The notes under the pieces: model-generated | The model's input: only the letters and a program-made list of their open reading frames with translations | The model's database searches: none | Told to the model about the DNA's origin: nothing | In this document: positions 15,033 to 33,336 of the stretch, one piece after another | Layout of the letters: every line of letters begins with the position of its first letter | How positions within the stretch are numbered: position 1 is the stretch's first letter | Made by a program: the position numbers and the translations under genes | Sequence record: OL956808.1 | Origin: Escherichia phage vB_EcoM-S1P5QW | Length of the DNA: 64,000 nt | Reading direction: 5' to 3' (one strand)

Positions 15033-15087
15033 TTTATAAGAGATTATGCTTTAATTTATTAGAGTATAATCTCTATGGAGGAAAAAC

Positions 15088-15285: not shown

Positions 15286-15675
15286 ATGACTAAAATTACT
15301 GTGAATTATACTGTTGATGTAAAAGATATTCAGCCAAAACACGTGCGTTCTGAATCAAATCCACAAAACCAAAATAAAATCCGTCGAGCATGGGTTTTGT
15401 CTCTTTCTGATAACGCAATGGAAGTTATTCAGAACAAAATTAAATCTGCACCTGCTCGTCATGCGTATTATGAAGCTATCGATCGTGAAGTAAGTAATAA
15501 ATGGATTGAACTAATGCGCAAACATACTACAGAATCTCTAAACGCCGGTGCTAAATTTATTATGACTTCATGTGGTGAACGCCTTGAAGATGATTATTGC
15601 GGTAATGCAGATGAACGTCTGATTGTTGCTGCACAAATTGTTGCGGAAACAATTGTGGCCGAGTTTAATAAATGA
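15286..15675 (+). CDS. rpbA: RNA polymerase-binding protein RpbA
   Basis: 129 aa, position upstream of gene 45. Confidence 0.7.
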
Positions 15676-16559
15676 ATTTAGTATATCTTATTAGCTTTCC
15701 AGAGCGGGAAGCTAAAAATATTTTTCCGTGTTATTATATAGGTTCAAAAATTAACGCAATTTTCGATGGAACAAATATAATTGATTCAGCTGGAAAGATT
15801 TATACTGGAAGCGTGTCATCGAGTTATAGCGATGAATATTTTGAACTTATTAAAACCACTAAATATACCGTCAAAATTTTAGCTGAAACTATATTAGATC
15901 CAAGAAAATTGGAGAGATTTTTTCAATTAAAAGTTAAAGCAAAGAGTAATATAAAATATTTTAATAAAGCATACGCAGATGAAAATACTTTAATTGGTGC
16001 TAAAGGATATGGAACATATAAAAATGTTTTAACTGGAAAAATTGTAAAGCTTTCGCAATCTGAAATTACGCCTGAGTATGTCGGTATTCGTAAAGGTTAC
16101 AAACATAGTTCTGAAGTAAAATACAAAATATCTAATTCAATGAAGAATCACTGGACCGATGAGAAAAAGCTTAAACTCTCAAATAAGATGAAATTGAAAT
16201 ATCTTGATTGTAGTTATGCTAAAAAGTTTAGTGATATAATGAATTCAGAAAGTGTAAGATCAAAAATTTCTAAATCTCAAAAAGAATTATGGAATAATGC
16301 TGAAAGAAGACAGAGAGCTTCAATTCAAGCAACTGTTAGAAATAATTTACCGGAATTCAAATCAAAATTTAGAAAATCTAAAGCTAGAGGAACTTGGATT
16401 GAACATGAAGATGAATTAAAATCTTTATGGCATGCTTACGGAAAACCAAGTTATAATAAATTTCGTAAAATTGCAGTAGCTAATGGGTTTAACGACGAAT
16501 CTTATCAGGGTGCTGTACGGTCCTGGTCTAACTATTATGTAAATAGGAAATTGAAATGA
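15672..16559 (+). CDS. homing-endonuclease-like protein (degenerate GIY-YIG-like N-terminus, NUMOD3-like repeats)
   Basis: 295 aa; VYL...YYIGS near N-terminus; [11 protein letters not shown] and [12 protein letters not shown] repeats; not present at this position in T4 as I recall. Confidence 0.5.
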
Positions 16560-17242
16560 AATTATCTAAAGACACACTGAATATTTTGAAAAATTTCGCT
16601 ACTATTAACTCTGGCATTATGCTTAAATCAGGTCAATTTATTATGACTCGCGCAGTTAATGGTACAACTTATGCAGAAGCAAATATTTCTGACACTATTG
16701 ATTTTGATGTAGCGATTTACGATTTGAACGGTTTTCTCGGTATTCTGTCTCTAGTTAATGATGATGCAGAAATTTCCCAGTCAGAAGATGGAAATATTAA
16801 AATTGCTGATGCCCGCTCAACAATTTTTTGGCCAGCAGCCGATCCGAGTACAGTAGTTGCTCCTAATAAACCAATTCCATTCCCGGTAGCATCTGTTGTT
16901 ACTGAAATTAAAGCTGAAGACCTTCAACAACTGTTGCGTGTATCTCGTGGTCTGCAAATTGATACAATTGCTATCACGGTAAAAGAAGGTAAAATCGTAA
17001 TTAATGGTTTTAATAAAGTAGAAGATTCTGCTCTTACCCGTGTTAAATATTCTTTGACTCTTGGTGATTATGATGGTGAAAATACATTTAATTTCATTAT
17101 CAATATGGCAAATATGAAAATGCAACCAGGAAATTATAAACTTCTGCTCTGGGCAAAAGGTAAACAAGGCGCTGCTAAATTTGAAGGTGAACACGCGAAT
17201 TATGTAGTAGCTCTTGAAGCTGATTCTACCCACGATTTTTAA
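16556..17242 (+). CDS. 45: sliding clamp gp45
   Basis: 228 aa, recognised as T4 gp45. Confidence 0.95.
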   Translation: MKLSKDTLNILKNFATINSGIMLKSGQFIMTRAVNGTTYAEANISDTIDFDVAIYDLNGFLGILSLVNDDAEISQSEDGNIKIADARSTIFWPAADPSTVVAPNKPIPFPVASVVTEIKAEDLQQLLRVSRGLQIDTIAITVKEGKIVINGFNKVEDSALTRVKYSLTLGDYDGENTFNFIINMANMKMQPGNYKLLLWAKGKQGAAKFEGEHANYVVALEADSTHDF

Positions 17243-18819: not shown

Positions 18820-19188
18820 ATGATTGAAATTACTCTTAAAAAACCTGAAGATTTTCTGAAAGTAAAAGAAACTTTGACTCGTATGGGAATTGCTAATAAT
18901 AAAGATAAAGTTCTGTATCAGTCCTGTCATATTCTTCAGAAAAAAGGACTATACTATATCGTTCATTTTAAAGAAATGCTTCGTATGGATGGCCGGCAAG
19001 TTGAAATGACAGAAGAAGATGAAGTTCGTCGTGATTCGATTGCATGGCTGTTAGAAGATTGGGGACTGATTGAAATCGTTCCTGGACAAAGAACTTTTAT
19101 GAAAGATTTAACTAATAACTTCCGAGTTATTTCTTTTAAACAAAAACATGAATGGAAACTCGTTCCTAAATATACGATTGGTAATTAA
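18820..19188 (+). CDS. regA: translational repressor RegA
   Basis: 122 aa, position after 62. Confidence 0.85.
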   Translation: MIEITLKKPEDFLKVKETLTRMGIANNKDKVLYQSCHILQKKGLYYIVHFKEMLRMDGRQVEMTEEDEVRRDSIAWLLEDWGLIEIVPGQRTFMKDLTNNFRVISFKQKHEWKLVPKYTIGN

Positions 19189-19198
19189 GGTAAATTAT

Positions 19199-19435
19199 AT
19201 GACACAATCAGAGATTCAGTTTACCGAAGCTTTTCTAATATTCGAAAATCTAAAACAAACATATGGTCTGTCTTCTACTCAACTGGTTTTTGACCTCCCG
19301 GAAGATAAACAAATAGAATTCCAAAAAGAATTCCAACGATTAGTTTACCCACGCCAACGCGCATTTCATGCGATTATCAAAACCACAAATAAAGATGGCA
19401 AGTCCGTTATATCGCGTCGTACAATAGAAATTTAA
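19199..19435 (+). CDS. hypothetical protein (78 aa)
   Basis: ATG with AAGG SD after regA; followed by hairpin. Confidence 0.4.
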   Translation: MTQSEIQFTEAFLIFENLKQTYGLSSTQLVFDLPEDKQIEFQKEFQRLVYPRQRAFHAIIKTTNKDGKSVISRRTIEI

Positions 19436-22358: not shown

Positions 22359-22386
22359 ACAACTATCAACTACGGAGGAACACAAA

Positions 22387-22638
22387 ATGAAAAATATTCA
22401 AACTAATTTTATTCAAAATTTAAAAGTTGTTAACGCAGAAAAAGCTAATAAACTCTTTAAAGTTAAAGAATTTGAAAATGAAGGTAACACTTACGGTATT
22501 ATAGAACAAAATGGAATGGTTACTGGATTAGAAATTTATAATGGTAAAGGAAAATTTCAGTCACAGCCAATTTCTGTTATGGGTGTAAGAAAAGGAATTA
22601 AAACTGAAGATGCTTTAAAGTTATTTGTTAAGTTTTAA
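22387..22638 (+). CDS. hypothetical protein
   Basis: 83-aa ORF after an early promoter, GGAGGAA SD. Confidence 0.45.
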   Translation: MKNIQTNFIQNLKVVNAEKANKLFKVKEFENEGNTYGIIEQNGMVTGLEIYNGKGKFQSQPISVMGVRKGIKTEDALKLFVKF

Positions 22639-22650
22639 GAGGAAATTATT

Positions 22651-23031
22651 ATGAAAATCGCTATTTTGGTTATTGCATTAGGTCTTACTGGTTGTGTGGC
22701 TCAAGGACCGGTAGTAAATCAGTCTGATGTAGGAAAAATTGTAAACTGTTCAAGCAAGTTTTATAATCCTAATGTCAAGTGTTATAAAGAAGCTCCAAAG
22801 CAAACAGTAGAACAAATGCAGGCGAATTTTGACGAAGCTATTCGTCCAGATGAATCTGCTCAAGCATATCGTAATTCGGATGTAATTACACGCGAAGAAA
22901 AAATTGAAAACTACTGCGCCGAGCTTTGGGCTAATTGGGCTAATAATTACCAATGGCGTACCGGTAAAAATGCTCCGATGGAGTATGTAGTGAATTCTTA
23001 TAATTCATGCGTAAAAAATTTGACTAAGTGA
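22651..23031 (+). CDS. putative lipoprotein
   Basis: 126 aa, signal peptide with LTGC lipobox. Confidence 0.5.
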   Translation: MKIAILVIALGLTGCVAQGPVVNQSDVGKIVNCSSKFYNPNVKCYKEAPKQTVEQMQANFDEAIRPDESAQAYRNSDVITREEKIENYCAELWANWANNYQWRTGKNAPMEYVVNSYNSCVKNLTK

Positions 23032-23443: not shown

Positions 23444-24184
23444 ATGATTAGTGACTCTATGACAGTTGAAGAAATCCGTCTTCATTTGGGGCTTGCATTA
23501 AAGGAAAAAGATTTCGTAGTTGATAAAACTGGTGTTAAAACTGTTGAAATTATTGGCGCATCATTTGTAGCAGATGAACCCTTTATTTTTGGCGCTCTTA
23601 ATGATGAATACATTCAGCGTGAACTTGAATGGTACAAGTCTCAAAGTCTGTTTGTTAAAGATATTCCAGGTGAAACACCAAAGATTTGGCAGCAGGTAGC
23701 ATCTTCTAAAGGCGAAATTAACTCGAATTATGGTTGGGCTATTTGGTCAGAAGATAACTATGCCCAGTATGATATGTGTTTAGCTGAACTTGGTCAAAAT
23801 CCTGATTCTCGACGTGGTATCATGATTTATACTCGTCCATCTATGCAGTTTGACTATAATAAAGATGGTATGTCAGATTTCATGTGCACGAATACAGTAC
23901 AGTACCTGATTCGTGACAAGAAAGTCAATGCAGTAGTAAGCATGCGCTCAAATGACGTGGTCTTCGGATTCCGTAATGATTATGCATGGCAAAAATACGT
24001 ATTAGATAAATTAGTATCTGATTTGAATGCAGGCGATTCAACTCGTCAGTATAAAGCAGGTTCTATTATATGGAATGTTGGAAGTCTTCATGTATATTCT
24101 CGTCATTTTTACTTGGTTGATCATTGGTGGAATACTGGCGAAACTCATATTGTGAAAAAAGACTATAAAGGTGAGTGGAAATGA
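23444..24184 (+). CDS. 42: dCMP hydroxymethylase
   Basis: 246 aa, thymidylate-synthase-like fold, recognised as T4 gp42. Confidence 0.9.
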   Translation: MISDSMTVEEIRLHLGLALKEKDFVVDKTGVKTVEIIGASFVADEPFIFGALNDEYIQRELEWYKSQSLFVKDIPGETPKIWQQVASSKGEINSNYGWAIWSEDNYAQYDMCLAELGQNPDSRRGIMIYTRPSMQFDYNKDGMSDFMCTNTVQYLIRDKKVNAVVSMRSNDVVFGFRNDYAWQKYVLDKLVSDLNAGDSTRQYKAGSIIWNVGSLHVYSRHFYLVDHWWNTGETHIVKKDYKGEWK

Positions 24185-25023
24185 TTCAATTCGTAATTCC
24201 AAGTTATCAACGTGTCGGGGCAGTTTCTGCCCTTGATATGTTTCCGACTGATTATGAACCGCATATTGTAGTGCGTGAACACGAAGAAAAAGCTTATTAT
24301 GATGCTTATGGGTCTAGAGCTAAAATTATAACTATTCCTGATGATGTAAACGGAATTGCCGGTACTCGTAAAGCAATTACTGATATGTATGCAGGTCAAC
24401 GAATTTGGATGATTGACGATGATACTACTATTCGTATGAGTTCAATGCGAAAAAGAGATGACCGTCGTTGTGTGGATAAAGTCAATCAATTGACTCATGA
24501 ACAGTTCTATGAATTGATTCAATATGTTGAGGATGCCATGGATTGTGGGTATTATCATGGCCATGCTCGTCTACCTATTTTTAAAATTACTTCATCTTGG
24601 GGCAATTATCGTGAAAATTCATATGGATTCACGAATACATGGTATGACCTCGGAAAACTTACTACAGAACAAATTGGGTATGGAAAAATTGATTTATGCG
24701 AAGATATGTATGCATTTCTCAATTTAATTAGTCAAGGTTATCCGCATTTGGCCTTGTTCAAATATCTGGTTGTATCTGGAAAAGCACAAGCTCCTGGCGG
24801 GTGTAGTTCAATTCGTAGTAATTCTAAACATAATAGAGCGCTTGAGCAAATCAATAGAGAGTTTCCAGAGCAAGCTCGTTGGAAAACTTCTAATATTGAA
24901 AAACGAAAATCGTTGGGTGAAGAAGACGAGCCATTAAAGGTTCTTCGCATGTGTGTTTCACGTAAAGAAAAATCAGAAGCATTTCATAAGTTTAATGCTA
25001 TTCATCCAATAGCAGTTGATTAA
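24181..25023 (+). CDS. putative DNA glycosyltransferase (GT-A-like, DxD), occupying the T4 beta-gt locus
   Basis: 281 aa from ATG overlapping gene 42 stop; IDDDTT motif; not T4 beta-gt (351 aa). Confidence 0.55.
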   Translation: MIQFVIPSYQRVGAVSALDMFPTDYEPHIVVREHEEKAYYDAYGSRAKIITIPDDVNGIAGTRKAITDMYAGQRIWMIDDDTTIRMSSMRKRDDRRCVDKVNQLTHEQFYELIQYVEDAMDCGYYHGHARLPIFKITSSWGNYRENSYGFTNTWYDLGKLTTEQIGYGKIDLCEDMYAFLNLISQGYPHLALFKYLVVSGKAQAPGGCSSIRSNSKHNRALEQINREFPEQARWKTSNIEKRKSLGEEDEPLKVLRMCVSRKEKSEAFHKFNAIHPIAVD

Positions 25024-25100
25024 TGCCTAAATTTATTGTGTTATAATTACTCTATCTTTAACCAGTGAGGAAAATATAATGATGCCTATGGAAAAAATGA

Positions 25101-26282
25101 ATGTCTATTGCAGATTTAAAATCCCGTTTGATTAAAGCTTCCACTTCTAAAATGACTGCTGAACTGACTACATCTAAATTCTTTAATGAAAAGGATGTAA
25201 TCCGTACAAAAATCCCAATGCTTAATATTGCTATTTCTGGTGCGATTGATGGCGGCATGCAGTCTGGTTTAACTATTTTCGCAGGGCCTTCTAAACACTT
25301 TAAATCAAATATGTCTTTGACTATGGTTGCGGCATATTTGAACAAATATCCTGACGCGGTTTGTCTATTCTATGATAGCGAATTTGGTATTACTCCAGCT
25401 TATTTACGATCCATGGGAGTTGACCCGGAACGAGTAATTCATACGCCAATTCAGTCAGTTGAACAGCTGAAAATTGATATGGTGAACCAGCTTGAAGCTA
25501 TTGAGCGTGGTGAAAAGGTTATTGTATTCATCGACTCAATCGGTAATATGGCTTCTAAGAAAGAAACGGAAGATGCCTTGAATGAAAAATCTGTGGCAGA
25601 TATGACTCGTGCTAAATCACTGAAGTCATTATTCCGTATTGTTACTCCTTATTTTAGCATTAAAAATATTCCATGTGTTGCGGTTAACCATACAATTGAA
25701 ACAATTGAAATGTTTAGTAAAACCGTGATGACAGGTGGTACAGGCGTAATGTATTCGGCTGATACTGTATTCATTATCGGTAAACGCCAGATTAAAGATG
25801 GTTCTGATCTTCAGGGGTATCAATTTGTTCTAAATGTAGAAAAATCTCGTACCGTTAAAGAAAAAAGTAAATTCTTTATTGATGTTAAATTTGACGGTGG
25901 TATCGATCCTTATTCTGGATTGTTAGATATGGCTCTAGAATTAGGATTTGTTGTAAAACCTAAGAATGGTTGGTATGCTCGTGAATTTCTTGACGAAGAA
26001 ACTGGCGAGATGATTCGCGAAGAAAAATCTTGGCGTGCAAAAGATACCAACTGCACTACATTCTGGGGTCCTTTATTTAAGCATCAACCATTCCGAGATG
26101 CTATTAAACGTGCTTATCAGTTAGGTGCTATTGATAGTAATGAAATTGTTGAAGCTGAAGTTGATGAATTGATTAACTCAAAGGTTGAAAAATTTAAATC
26201 TCCAGAAAGTAAAAGTAAATCAGCAGCTGATTTAGAAACTGACCTCGAGCAGTTAAGTGATATGGAAGAATTTAATGAATAA
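25101..26282 (+). CDS. uvsX: recombinase UvsX (RecA-like)
   Basis: 393 aa, Walker A GPSKHFKS, recognised as T4 UvsX. Confidence 0.95.
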   Translation: MSIADLKSRLIKASTSKMTAELTTSKFFNEKDVIRTKIPMLNIAISGAIDGGMQSGLTIFAGPSKHFKSNMSLTMVAAYLNKYPDAVCLFYDSEFGITPAYLRSMGVDPERVIHTPIQSVEQLKIDMVNQLEAIERGEKVIVFIDSIGNMASKKETEDALNEKSVADMTRAKSLKSLFRIVTPYFSIKNIPCVAVNHTIETIEMFSKTVMTGGTGVMYSADTVFIIGKRQIKDGSDLQGYQFVLNVEKSRTVKEKSKFFIDVKFDGGIDPYSGLLDMALELGFVVKPKNGWYAREFLDEETGEMIREEKSWRAKDTNCTTFWGPLFKHQPFRDAIKRAYQLGAIDSNEIVEAEVDELINSKVEKFKSPESKSKSAADLETDLEQLSDMEEFNE

Positions 26283-30927: not shown

Positions 30928-30940
30928 ATGTCCTCCTTAT

Positions 30941-30964
30941 TGCTTTATATATTTATTGTATAAT
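30941..30964 (+). promoter_or_regulatory. candidate MotA-dependent middle promoter upstream of gene 56
   Basis: TGCTTTA followed about 12 bp later by TATAAT. Confidence 0.45.
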
Positions 30965-30998
30965 TAATCTACTAACCCATGAATTGAAAGGAAAAATA

Positions 30999-31517
30999 AT
31001 GGCTTACTTTAATGAATGTGCTCATTTGATCGAAGGTGTTGATAAAGCAAATCGTGCATATGCTGAGAATATTATGCACAATATTGACCCACTGCAGGTT
31101 ATGCTTGACATGCAGCGGCATTTACAGATTCGTTTGGCTAATGATAAACCAGAAACAAATCGTCATCCTGATTCACTTGAAACTGCAGGAGAAGTTCTTG
31201 CTTGGTTGCGAAACCAAGACGATTATATCGCAGATGAAACTCGCGAGCTATATACTTCTCTTGGTGGTATGAGTAATGGTGAAAAAGAAGCTTCTGCTGT
31301 ATGGAAACCTTGGAAGAAACGTTATTCTGAAATGCAATCCAAGAAAATTCAAGATTTATCTCCTGAAGATCAGCTTGAAATTAAATTTGAACTGATTGAC
31401 CAATTTCACTTTTTCATGAATAAATTTATTGCTCTTGGAATGTCAGCTGAAGAAATCTTTAAACTTTATTACCTGAAAAATGCTGAAAACTTCGCTCGTC
31501 AAGACCGAGGTTATTAA
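30999..31517 (+). CDS. 56: dCTP pyrophosphatase gp56
   Basis: 172 aa from ATG (MAYFNECAHL), recognised as T4 gp56; track start over-extended. Confidence 0.85.
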   Translation: MAYFNECAHLIEGVDKANRAYAENIMHNIDPLQVMLDMQRHLQIRLANDKPETNRHPDSLETAGEVLAWLRNQDDYIADETRELYTSLGGMSNGEKEASAVWKPWKKRYSEMQSKKIQDLSPEDQLEIKFELIDQFHFFMNKFIALGMSAEEIFKLYYLKNAENFARQDRGY

Positions 31518-31717
31518 TGGCTCGTTTAAATAAGCGTCAGCTCAAGAAAGCCCATAAGAAACGTATTGACCAGCTATTTAAAGATTATAACAAGGAGCTC
31601 GTATGTGAGCTCTTAACTAATCAACTTCGTATGGTTGATTGGGTTATAGAAGAAGGTCCTGACGAAATTTTTGTCAGCGAAGAAGCCTTAAAATTAATTA
31701 TAGAGCATTCAAAATGA
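31517..31717 (+). CDS. hypothetical protein
   Basis: 66-aa ORF, TAATG overlap. Confidence 0.4.
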   Translation: MARLNKRQLKKAHKKRIDQLFKDYNKELVCELLTNQLRMVDWVIEEGPDEIFVSEEALKLIIEHSK

Positions 31718-31923
31718 AATTTGATTTCTACGCGTGGCAAAAAGCCGGGAGACCGGCTACTCGAGCATTTGGTTCTGATGGATATAATATTAGAGCCCAT
31801 TGGAAATTTAATGCTCCAGAAGATTATTCTCCGGTAATTATTAACGGCGATGTTGTTATATTAACTAAAATCGGGTATTTTAACGTTCCGCGAGAATTTA
31901 TTATAAATAATCATGTAATTTAA
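31714..31923 (+). CDS. hypothetical protein
   Basis: 69-aa ORF, ATGA overlap. Confidence 0.4.
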   Translation: MKFDFYAWQKAGRPATRAFGSDGYNIRAHWKFNAPEDYSPVIINGDVVILTKIGYFNVPREFIINNHVI

Positions 31924-31939
31924 ATAAAAGGAGAATTAC

Positions 31940-32197
31940 ATGGCTAGTACTCGCGGTTATGTTAATATTAAAACATTTGACCAAGCAGTTGATGGTGGTA
32001 CAATTCAGGGTAAAGAAATTTCTGTAGCTTTCCCTCTTTATTCTGATGTTCACAAAATTTCTGGGGCTCATTATCAGACATTTCCTTCAGAAAAAGCAGC
32101 ATATTCAACAGTATATGAAGAAAATCAGCGTGCTGATTGGATTACTGCAAATGAAGGTCTTTGGACTGTTACGCCAACTCCAGGTATTGGTGATTAA
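31940..32197 (+). CDS. soc: small outer capsid protein Soc
   Basis: 85 aa, recognised as T4 Soc; followed by hairpin terminator. Confidence 0.8.
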   Translation: MASTRGYVNIKTFDQAVDGGTIQGKEISVAFPLYSDVHKISGAHYQTFPSEKAAYSTVYEENQRADWITANEGLWTVTPTPGIGD

Positions 32198-32204
32198 AAT
32201 TTAA

Positions 32205-32228
32205 GGAATCCTTCGGGGTTCCTTTTTT
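32205..32228 (+). terminator. rho-independent terminator after soc
   Basis: GGAATCC-TTCG-GGGTTCC then TTTTTT. Confidence 0.65.
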
Positions 32229-32294
32229 CGTTTTTGCAGTTTACTTTCCAAAATGAGTATGGTATAATAGAATTATCTTATAGAGGAGAGCACT

Positions 32295-32501
32295 ATGTTA
32301 AATCGCTGGATTAAACCAAATGAAGATTTAGATATTATCATTTCACGGCATGTAATGAAGAAATATGAATTGCAACCATGGTCTACAGAAGTTGTTGTGC
32401 ATTCATTTATGATGTACGCAGATGGTTCTGTCGAATTTAATGCAGAGATTCGATATGATTATGGTGAAAAGCAAGTCGAATTTCAAAGAGGCTTTTTGTA
32501 A
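32295..32501 (+). CDS. hypothetical protein
   Basis: 68-aa ORF. Confidence 0.4.
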   Translation: MLNRWIKPNEDLDIIISRHVMKKYELQPWSTEVVVHSFMMYADGSVEFNAEIRYDYGEKQVEFQRGFL

Positions 32502-32842
32502 TGTTTATCTTTAATTGGTTTAAAAATTTCTTTACAGATTTTTTCTCTACAACTCCGGGAGAAGGTGTAGTTCCTATTTCAAATGACTATCTTCCTTTAA
32601 CTGTAGTTGAATATGTTTATATGGGAGATGGAACAGTAGAAGCAGTTACTATGACTTATGAAGAAGCCCAAGAATATTATAAAAATCCTTGGCGCTGGTC
32701 AGTACCTACTACATCATCTAATGCACAGAATACACAGTCTAGTTCTGATTCATATGACACCAATGTTCCTGTTCATGTATGGGCAGGTGATTCATGTGGA
32801 AGTTCTTGTGATTCTAGTTGTTCATCTACATCTTGTGATTGA
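32501..32842 (+). CDS. hypothetical protein with Cys/Ser-rich C-terminal tail
   Basis: 113 aa; C-terminus [15 protein letters not shown]. Confidence 0.4.
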
Positions 32843-32850
32843 GGAAAATT

Positions 32851-33336
32851 ATGGAAGCGATTTTGTTTGAAATGTATATTAGCAGTAATAGCATGTCGTT
32901 TGCTAAAGATGTTCCAATTACTGTAGCCGTAGTGATTGATAAGGGTTATTGTAACCCTATGTATCTCGTAGAAAATTTCGTTTCAATGCCAGTTCCAGAA
33001 GATGTTGAAATAAAACTTAAAAAGATCGGAATTATTGAAACTGTGCCAAATAGTCCGTTTAGAGCAATTGAAGCATTTACTAAATCCGAATACATTAATG
33101 TTAGCGCAGAACAATATAATGGTAATCCTTTATCTTTTTATTCGTACGATTCAGTATATGACTGGAAAATAAATGAAGGAAATAAATTTATAATTGCGAG
33201 TGAAGATGCTTTATCATACTTTATTTATTATGTATGGAATAATTTAAATCCAAAATTGCTAAAAATTCATGAATTTGACGATGCTCCTACTATTGTTTTA
33301 GGTAAAACAAATGAAAGTTCTGAAGAAGATGCTTGA
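32851..33336 (+). CDS. hypothetical protein (possibly Mrh)
   Basis: 161 aa from ATG with GAGGAAA SD; size and position fit T4 mrh. Confidence 0.4.

Follow-up and report, generated by a model that had tools for sequence, protein, structure and literature searches.

A probable Seg-family homing endonuclease gene inserted between rpbA and the sliding-clamp gene 45 of Escherichia phage vB_EcoM-S1P5QW

We examined a 64,000-nt stretch of the genome of Escherichia phage vB_EcoM-S1P5QW (OL956808.1; hereafter the window), in which a 295-aa ORF with an ATG start lies on the plus strand between rpbA and gene 45, which encodes the sliding clamp. The three genes at the locus are as follows:

15286..15675, plus strand: rpbA, the upstream flank and a possible target or co-converted marker (Pfam Phage_RpbA, E 6e-42).
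15672..16559, plus strand: probable free-standing Seg-family GIY-YIG homing endonuclease gene, 295 aa (ORF, phrog_655 match, RefSeq label and dN/dS).
16556..17242, plus strand: gene 45, the sliding clamp and downstream flank (Pfam gp45-slide_C, E 1e-51; DNA_PPF, E 8e-32).

The ORF overlaps both of its neighbors in the same manner. On the left, AAATGA at 15670-15675 places the ATG of the ORF (15672-15674) over the TGA stop of rpbA (15673-15675), while on the right, AAATGA at 16554-16559 places the ATG of gene 45 (16556-16558) over the TGA stop of the ORF (16557-16559). Thus, the sequence confirms the claim of the initial annotation that a 295-aa ORF occupies this position with ATGA at both ends. 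The same annotation had described rpbA and gene 45 as adjacent in T4, and this is borne out in NC_000866.4, where rpbA (32659-33048) and gene 45 (31917-32603) are separated by a 55-bp spacer that contains no ORF. The gene order around the ORF (46, 45.2, rpbA, ORF, 45, 44, 62, regA) is the same in Tequatrovirus records.

An identical protein is labelled 'homing endonuclease' in RefSeq record NC_031085, as it is in some other database records. Among seven intact Tequatrovirus copies of the gene, dN/dS was 0.06-0.17 in most pairs (full range 0-0.30), and because these values are low, we consider that the protein is under purifying selection. The existence of homologues in three phage genera, together with the low dN/dS, rules out a chance ORF. 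We did not rely upon a frameshift in the copy from ESh24 as a sign of decay, since the change lies in a homopolymer (T6 to T7) and the record is marked UNVERIFIED.

To define the distribution of the gene, we compared the rpbA-ORF-45 segment by megablast to 50,697 phage records; this collection contains duplicate GenBank and RefSeq entries, and the numbers given here are therefore counts of records rather than of independent isolates. The ORF is present, with 97-99.5% identity, in 24 of the 632 records that have both flanks. All of the other flank-bearing records (~96% of the 632, including T2 and T4) yielded a two-piece alignment spanning 1,132 bp, corresponding to an empty site with a spacer of ~55 bp. 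Similarly, the ORF is absent from 16 of 16 T4-like loci in IMG/VR (gp45 identity 53-100%), in which rpbA adjoins gene 45, and use of the endonuclease as a query in IMG/VR yielded no confirmed relative. A comparison of this junction across T4-like genomes had been proposed in the initial annotation; its outcome is that the ORF is not universal and is missing in T4. Relative to T4, 875 bp of the window (15670-16544) stand in place of 51 bp (T4 32614-32664), and homology to T4, and to the empty site, restarts at window position 16545. The ORF is an insertion, free-standing between conserved genes of the same orientation and sporadic among close relatives.

In proteins of the GIY-YIG superfamily, the two eponymous motifs are 10-11 residues apart and are followed by an Arg after YIG (R27 in I-TevI) and by a Glu and an Asn (E75 and N90 in I-TevI). 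The N-terminal part of the protein encoded by the insert resembles a particular branch of this superfamily:

15672..15986, plus strand: SegG-type GIY-YIG nuclease domain, aa 1-105, with Y5, Y22-I23-G24, K26, Y44, S47, E81 and N98 conserved.

We found that aa 1-102 are 40% identical to T4 SegG (103 aa aligned; E 3e-9 by tblastn against the phage database; E 1e-16 by pairwise blastp). The alignment to the T4 Seg proteins that had been suggested initially therefore shows 40% identity to SegG over the N-terminal ~100 aa and a SegA-like C-terminus. In PHROG, the 'homing endonuclease' family phrog_655 matches aa 1-294 (E 4e-33), and phrog_7504, to which SegG belongs, matches aa 1-103 (E 5e-18). In an AlphaFold2 model of the protein based on 46 relatives, pLDDT exceeds 90 across aa 1-100. 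Foldseek comparison of the model to viral predicted structures (BFVD) yielded 34 matches at E<=1e-3, and those that are named are SegG, gp32.1, NUMOD, GIY-YIG and group I intron endonucleases, while comparison of the whole model to the PDB yielded no match. A GIY-YIG alpha/beta catalytic fold is predicted for the N-terminal domain. Against PDB sequences, both phmmer with the endonuclease and hmmsearch with the 46-sequence profile gave matches at chance level and did not reach I-TevI. An exhaustive search of 1.84 billion proteins with the N-terminal domain found 55 representative clusters at E<=1e-3, which is a small family.

Inspection of the motifs showed that Y22, I23, G24, S25, Y44, S47, E81 and N98 are invariant among the 46 relatives, and that Y5, P19, K26 and A102 are almost invariant. 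The GIY-YIG-like N-terminus described in the initial annotation is indeed present: VYL spans aa 4-6 and YYIGS spans aa 21-25, and the residues between these motifs number 14 rather than the 13 given there. The spacer from GIY to YIG is 15 residues, as it is in SegG, compared to the canonical 10-11. The stretch between aa 25 and 77 contains no Arg, such that an equivalent of the canonical I-TevI R27 is absent, and this is likewise the case in SegG; the almost invariant K26 and the invariant Y44 and S47 sit in this Arg-less stretch after YIG. The initial annotation was therefore correct that no Arg follows shortly after YIG, but this feature, which it took as a possible mark of a diverged or inactive nuclease, is also a trait of SegG, which cleaves DNA. 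Because SegG has both the lengthened hairpin and the missing Arg, we consider these to be traits of the clade rather than signs of decay. By hhalign, E81 and N98 would correspond to I-TevI E75 and N90, the catalytic Glu and Asn, although the alignment is weak and leaves an ambiguity of 2 residues in the register near the Glu. This alignment, between the family N-terminal domain and a three-sequence alignment of I-TevI, SegA and SegF (E 0.028; probability 1.7%), puts aa 64-105 onto I-TevI 55-97 and serves as a rough residue guide only.

Standard profile searches recognize little of this domain. The Pfam GIY-YIG model (PF01541) found nothing at E<=1 in the endonuclease and nothing at E<=0.01 in any of the 46 relatives; T4 SegG and SegF have no Pfam match either. 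The Pfam check proposed in the initial annotation thus nominally goes against a nuclease assignment, with no GIY-YIG match and a NUMOD3 score below threshold, but this test is uninformative for the SegG-type clade, because the verified SegG and SegF also score nothing. Moreover, since Pfam screening misses the whole SegG-type GIY-YIG clade, counts of homing endonucleases in T4-like genomes are underestimates.

The remainder of the protein contains three putative DNA-binding elements:

16098..16145, plus strand: degenerate NUMOD3-like helix 1, aa 143-158 (sub-threshold Pfam match, identity to I-TevI, and alignment to SegA and relatives).
16239..16292, plus strand: degenerate NUMOD3-like helix 2, aa 190-207 (aligned with the second KHSEE..K motif of relatives with significant NUMOD3 matches).
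16407..16541, plus strand: C-terminal helical, SegA-like putative helix-turn-helix DNA-binding module, aa 246-290.

The Pfam NUMOD3 model (PF07460) scores 12.9 bits at aa 142-158, which is below the cutoff of 20.4 (E 0.11), and helix 2 has no Pfam match of its own. Helix 1 is nonetheless identical to I-TevI 180-195 at 9 of 16 residues, and both repeats align with the Pfam-significant NUMOD3 repeats of SegA and of relatives. Significant NUMOD3 matches occur at aa ~145-200 in 10 of the 46 family members (best E 7e-14), and at the equivalent position in 9 of 10 further relatives from the exhaustive N-terminal domain search. Thus, of the two NUMOD3-like repeats reported initially, the motifs themselves (aa 144-154 and 191-202) are present and aligned with genuine NUMOD3 of relatives, but they miss the Pfam gathering score. 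Residues 247-278 match SegA 176-207 (34% identity; E 2e-4). Since the N-terminal domain is SegG-like and the rear half is NUMOD3- and SegA-like, the protein combines a SegG-type nuclease with a SegA/NUMOD-type binding half.

Judged from its sequence, then, the protein is an as yet uncharacterized member of the well-known T4 Seg class, and its closest characterized relative is T4 SegG (gp32.1). Both SegG and SegF are listed as active GIY-YIG homing endonucleases, SegG cleaves DNA and drives marker exclusion, and Seg enzymes mediate marker exclusion (PMC2988022). SegG is a free-standing GIY-YIG homing endonuclease located between genes 59 and 32 rather than between rpbA and 45. The two proteins have in common the motif set MN.VY...P.YYIGSK...GK.Y..S...ER..QL.V.A..N..YFN, and neither one has the canonical Arg or a Pfam GIY-YIG match; moreover, both genes are promoter-less cassettes directly upstream of, and in the same orientation as, an essential replication gene. 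They differ in length (295 aa compared to 210 aa for SegG) and in best PHROG (655 compared to 7504), and the C-terminal half of the endonuclease is unrelated to that of SegG and closer to SegA/NUMOD3-type modules. In addition, the activity of SegG is established, while the endonuclease is known here from sequence. With SegA and SegF, the endonuclease shares the general plan of a GIY-YIG domain, NUMOD3 helices and a C-terminal helical module, as well as phrog_314, and its match to SegF is weak. In contrast, their nuclease domains have no BLAST-detectable similarity to that of the endonuclease, and SegA scores in Pfam GIY-YIG (3e-9) and NUMOD3 (1e-6), whereas the endonuclease does not. Compared to I-TevI, the td intron endonuclease and structural archetype of GIY-YIG enzymes, the endonuclease has no Arg27 equivalent, a longer GIY-YIG hairpin, no zinc finger and no significant sequence similarity, and it is encoded by a free-standing gene rather than within an intron. 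What the endonuclease has in common with both SegA and I-TevI is the type of binding module and the fold. Its insertion site and domain combination differ from those of all seven T4 seg genes in the review of this family (PMC2988022), and our literature search found no paper on an endonuclease at rpbA/45.

We compared the flanks of the insert in eight occupied and eight empty genomes, covering ~1.5 kb on each side, and counted exact matches to the start of gene 45. Fixed differences between the occupied and empty genomes occur only at the two junctions:

15670..15675, plus strand: left junction, last rpbA codon and stop, AAA TGA here and CGT TAA in empty sites (the sole left-flank positions without a shared base).
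16545..16573, plus strand: right junction, gene 45 Shine-Dalgarno sequence and insert-specific changes in gene 45 (restart of T4 homology, fixed differences and a 40-nt haplotype).

Within gene 45, nt 7, 9 and 18 (16562, 16564 and 16573) are fixed, changing CTG to TTA and GAT to GAC, both of which are synonymous. Over the 100 bp nearest the insert, occupied and empty genomes diverge from each other by 9.5% on the left and 12.5% on the right, and past ~100-200 bp this divergence falls to within-group levels where the flanks align cleanly; windows in the far-left flank are inflated by other insertions in two of the 16 genomes. In exact 40-nt searches of the whole phage collection, the insert-type gene 45 start was found in 19 records, all of which carry the insert, and in 0 of 459 empty ones. 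The empty-site starts are of two types, which we name by the residues encoded in codons 7-11 of gene 45 (window 16574-16588): TLNIL in 49 records and TTALL, the T4/T2 type, in 410.

We also note that these two haplotypes differ at 10 of 13 nt in this patch, and that TLNIL is present in all insert-carrying genomes in addition to the 49 empty records, while TTALL is found in the 410 empty records, among them T4 and T2. The split between TLNIL and TTALL could be a footprint of co-conversion or of loss, or could represent a target or immunity polymorphism. As speculation, the codon 7-11 patch and the substitutions at the junctions might jointly determine whether a target is sensitive or immune. 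On the other side, the insert was found in at least three rpbA 3' haplotypes, each of which also occurs in empty genomes. Thus, recombination over very short tracts has brought the insert into different backgrounds, or has moved it along with them.

Orthologues in Mosigvirus and Gaprivervirus, with 54-61% aa identity, occupy the same rpbA/45 site and have the same ATGA overlap onto gene 45, and the NRK codons that encode the gene 45 Shine-Dalgarno sequence are conserved in all three genera. Between genera, the endonuclease orthologues have 54-62% aa identity, compared to 40-61% for rpbA and 60-79% for gp45. This divergence resembles what is seen in the flanking genes, and the history of the gene may therefore include a long residence in which it was lost repeatedly. 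Among the Mosigvirus copies, that of AV114 is intact and those of JM17 and AV115 are split, as a cycle of gain and decay would predict. The Gaprivervirus VR26 orthologue (L020, 2501-3388) is intact at 295 aa, with a GTG start that overlaps the rpbA stop; the deposited annotation starts at an internal ATG (2756), and the nuclease domain is therefore truncated in that record. Taken together, the patchiness, the junction-limited differences and the split copies are the traces expected of a homing gene in a cycle of gain, fixation and decay, although they do not by themselves prove current activity.

We examined the expression signals around the insert, in particular those for gene 45. The Shine-Dalgarno sequence of gene 45, AGGAAA (16545-16550), is encoded by the last endonuclease codons (N-R-K). 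The T4 spacer that the insert replaced reads TAATTGCTTTATTAAATTAGTTATAAAATT... and fits the MotA-box/-10 pattern of T4 middle promoters. T4 is reported to have both Pm45 and Pm45.2 (PMC6024815), and we infer that the replaced spacer sequence is Pm45. A pattern scan identified one further site upstream:

15047..15072, plus strand: MotA-box middle-promoter-like site upstream of 45.2, TGCTTTA-N12-TATAAT.

This site, the nearest exact MotA box with a -10, is the closest candidate promoter that could drive 45.2-rpbA-endonuclease-45. In the 3' part of the endonuclease ORF, there is no exact MotA box and no exact TATAAATA; a single late-like sequence with one mismatch, TGTAAATA, lies at 16538, and generic sigma-70 matches are no commoner than in shuffled sequences. 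Since the spacer is replaced, homology restarts at the Shine-Dalgarno sequence and no promoter is nearby, the endonuclease gene appears to be a promoter-less cassette that displaced a host promoter region. Many seg and mob genes are promoter-less cassettes that displace host promoters (PMC2988022).

Near its 5' end, 20 nt into the ORF, the endonuclease gene also contains a perfect 10-bp stem with a 5-nt loop (TTAGCTTTCC-AGAGC-GGGAAGCTAA), followed by AAATATTTTT (window 15691-15715). Eight Tequatrovirus copies have this hairpin unchanged, whereas the orthologues in Mosigvirus and Gaprivervirus do not have it, and the z-score of a 101-nt fold around it is only -1.87. It could act in transcription attenuation, or in control of translation or processing of the endonuclease message.

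We consider it highly probable that the gene inserted at rpbA-45 belongs to the free-standing homing endonuclease genes of the T4 Seg (GIY-YIG) family, and that it would home by cleavage. The gene has replaced ~51 bp of the rpbA-45 spacer. In its product, a SegG-type GIY-YIG domain (aa 1-105) is followed by a beta-hairpin linker, by the two degenerate NUMOD3 helices and by a C-terminal helical module like that of SegA. The promoter-less cassette would be transcribed with 45.2-rpbA by read-through, its translation would probably be low and coupled to that of rpbA via the ATGA overlap, and gene 45 takes its ribosome-binding site from the last codons of the cassette. When a phage that does not have the gene, such as T4 or T2, is present in the same infection, the endonuclease would cleave the empty rpbA/45 allele in the junction or close to it, and repair from the endonuclease-carrying genome would copy in the gene and adjacent rpbA and gene 45 sequence, resulting in localized marker exclusion. 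The phage's own genome would be shielded by the insertion and by the junction-specific substitutions. We infer the expression, cleavage, repair and homing steps from SegB, SegE, SegF and SegG (PMC2988022; PMC2330249).

We considered that the gene might instead encode a catalytically dead or domesticated Seg derivative, which neither cuts nor homes and is kept as a DNA- or RNA-binding regulator or for the gene 45 translation signals. The absence of the canonical Arg after YIG, the lack of a Pfam GIY-YIG match and the degenerate NUMOD3 repeats would all fit such a protein, but SegG, which is active (PMC2988022), shares the motif without Arg and likewise has no Pfam match. Furthermore, the candidate catalytic residues Glu81 and Asn98, as well as both motif tyrosines, are invariant or almost so in the 46 relatives. 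Retention for reasons other than homing is plausible in that the gene carries the Shine-Dalgarno sequence of gene 45 and replaced a spacer with a MotA-box promoter-like sequence, such that its deletion could be costly; purifying selection shows that there is a function, and not which one, and a Seg member that does not home its own gene is known in SegD, whose activity is given as 'ND' (PMC2988022). Nevertheless, patchiness over several flank backgrounds and junction-limited fixed differences fit an active or recently active homing element, and we regard the loss of catalysis as improbable.

Even less probable, in our view, is that the gene belonged to the ancestral 46-45 cluster, is not mobile at present and has been lost on many occasions, such that its patchiness reflects deletion rather than homing. 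All 16 IMG/VR loci and ~96% of close relatives, including T2 and T4, are empty, and a 55-bp spacer with promoter-like signals is conserved among the empty sites, which show no deletion scar. An ancestral resident would account for orthologues at exactly the same site in three genera with divergence comparable to that of the flanks, and the 49 empty records with the TLNIL haplotype of insert-carrying genomes could be its loss footprint; yet several of the flank haplotypes that contain the insert in Tequatrovirus also occur in empty genomes, and the characterized family members are mobile. Starting from the preferred reading, that of a homing endonuclease gene, we put forward tentatively, and as somewhat doubtful, a joint reading in which the SegG-type domain is a distinct GIY-YIG catalytic variant, as the missing Arg, the lengthened GIY-YIG hairpin and the conserved K26, Y44 and S47 might indicate, and in which the element is also hard to lose. 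In the latter respect, the gene would have replaced the middle-promoter spacer of gene 45 and would supply the clamp ribosome-binding site, such that clamp expression would run through the endonuclease gene, while the enzyme would exclude the rpbA, 45, 44 and 62 alleles of competitors.

If the endonuclease is active, it would be a further Seg-type endonuclease beside the core replication operon 45-44-62-regA-43. In mixed infections, its activity would skew which clamp and clamp-loader alleles are inherited, and this would help to explain the mosaicism of an otherwise conserved region. The element is well suited to experiment: both gene 45 haplotypes are represented among the many natural empty alleles, three genera have intact orthologues, and some copies appear to be decaying.

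Other parts of the window also differ from T4. A comparison to T4 identified the following absent or replaced blocks:

24166-25113, 30938-30979 and 31477-31902: blocks that are absent from, or replaced relative to, T4.

The phage has a different 947-bp segment in place of the beta-gt and segA block, and both dam and segF are absent. Since the segA block is replaced and segF is missing, its set of homing endonucleases differs from that of T4. There are ~245 bp extra relative to T4 between regA and gene 43 (19189-19435), with a 95-aa ORF (19148-19435) that is called 'hypothetical' or 'ORF43.1' in some records, as well as ~280 bp extra near imm.1 (22373-22651).

Additional genes are found close to the insert in other phages. 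Two other insert-carrying phages, N2 (L029, 1-335 and 2032-2748) and GRNsp7 (L025, 195-1049), have further nuclease genes within 3 kb upstream, namely a 'homing endonuclease' ahead of 46, an opposite-strand HNH endonuclease between 46 and 45.2, and an extra 284-aa ORF ahead of 46. Such genes seem to cluster in the 47-45 region, as in a hotspot. Finally, in a more distant T4-like contig (L010, 5998-6357), we noted a weak tblastn match (30% over aa 154-282, in the DNA-binding half of the endonuclease) downstream of the clamp-loader genes. This match may represent a second endonuclease, located elsewhere, whose binding module is related.
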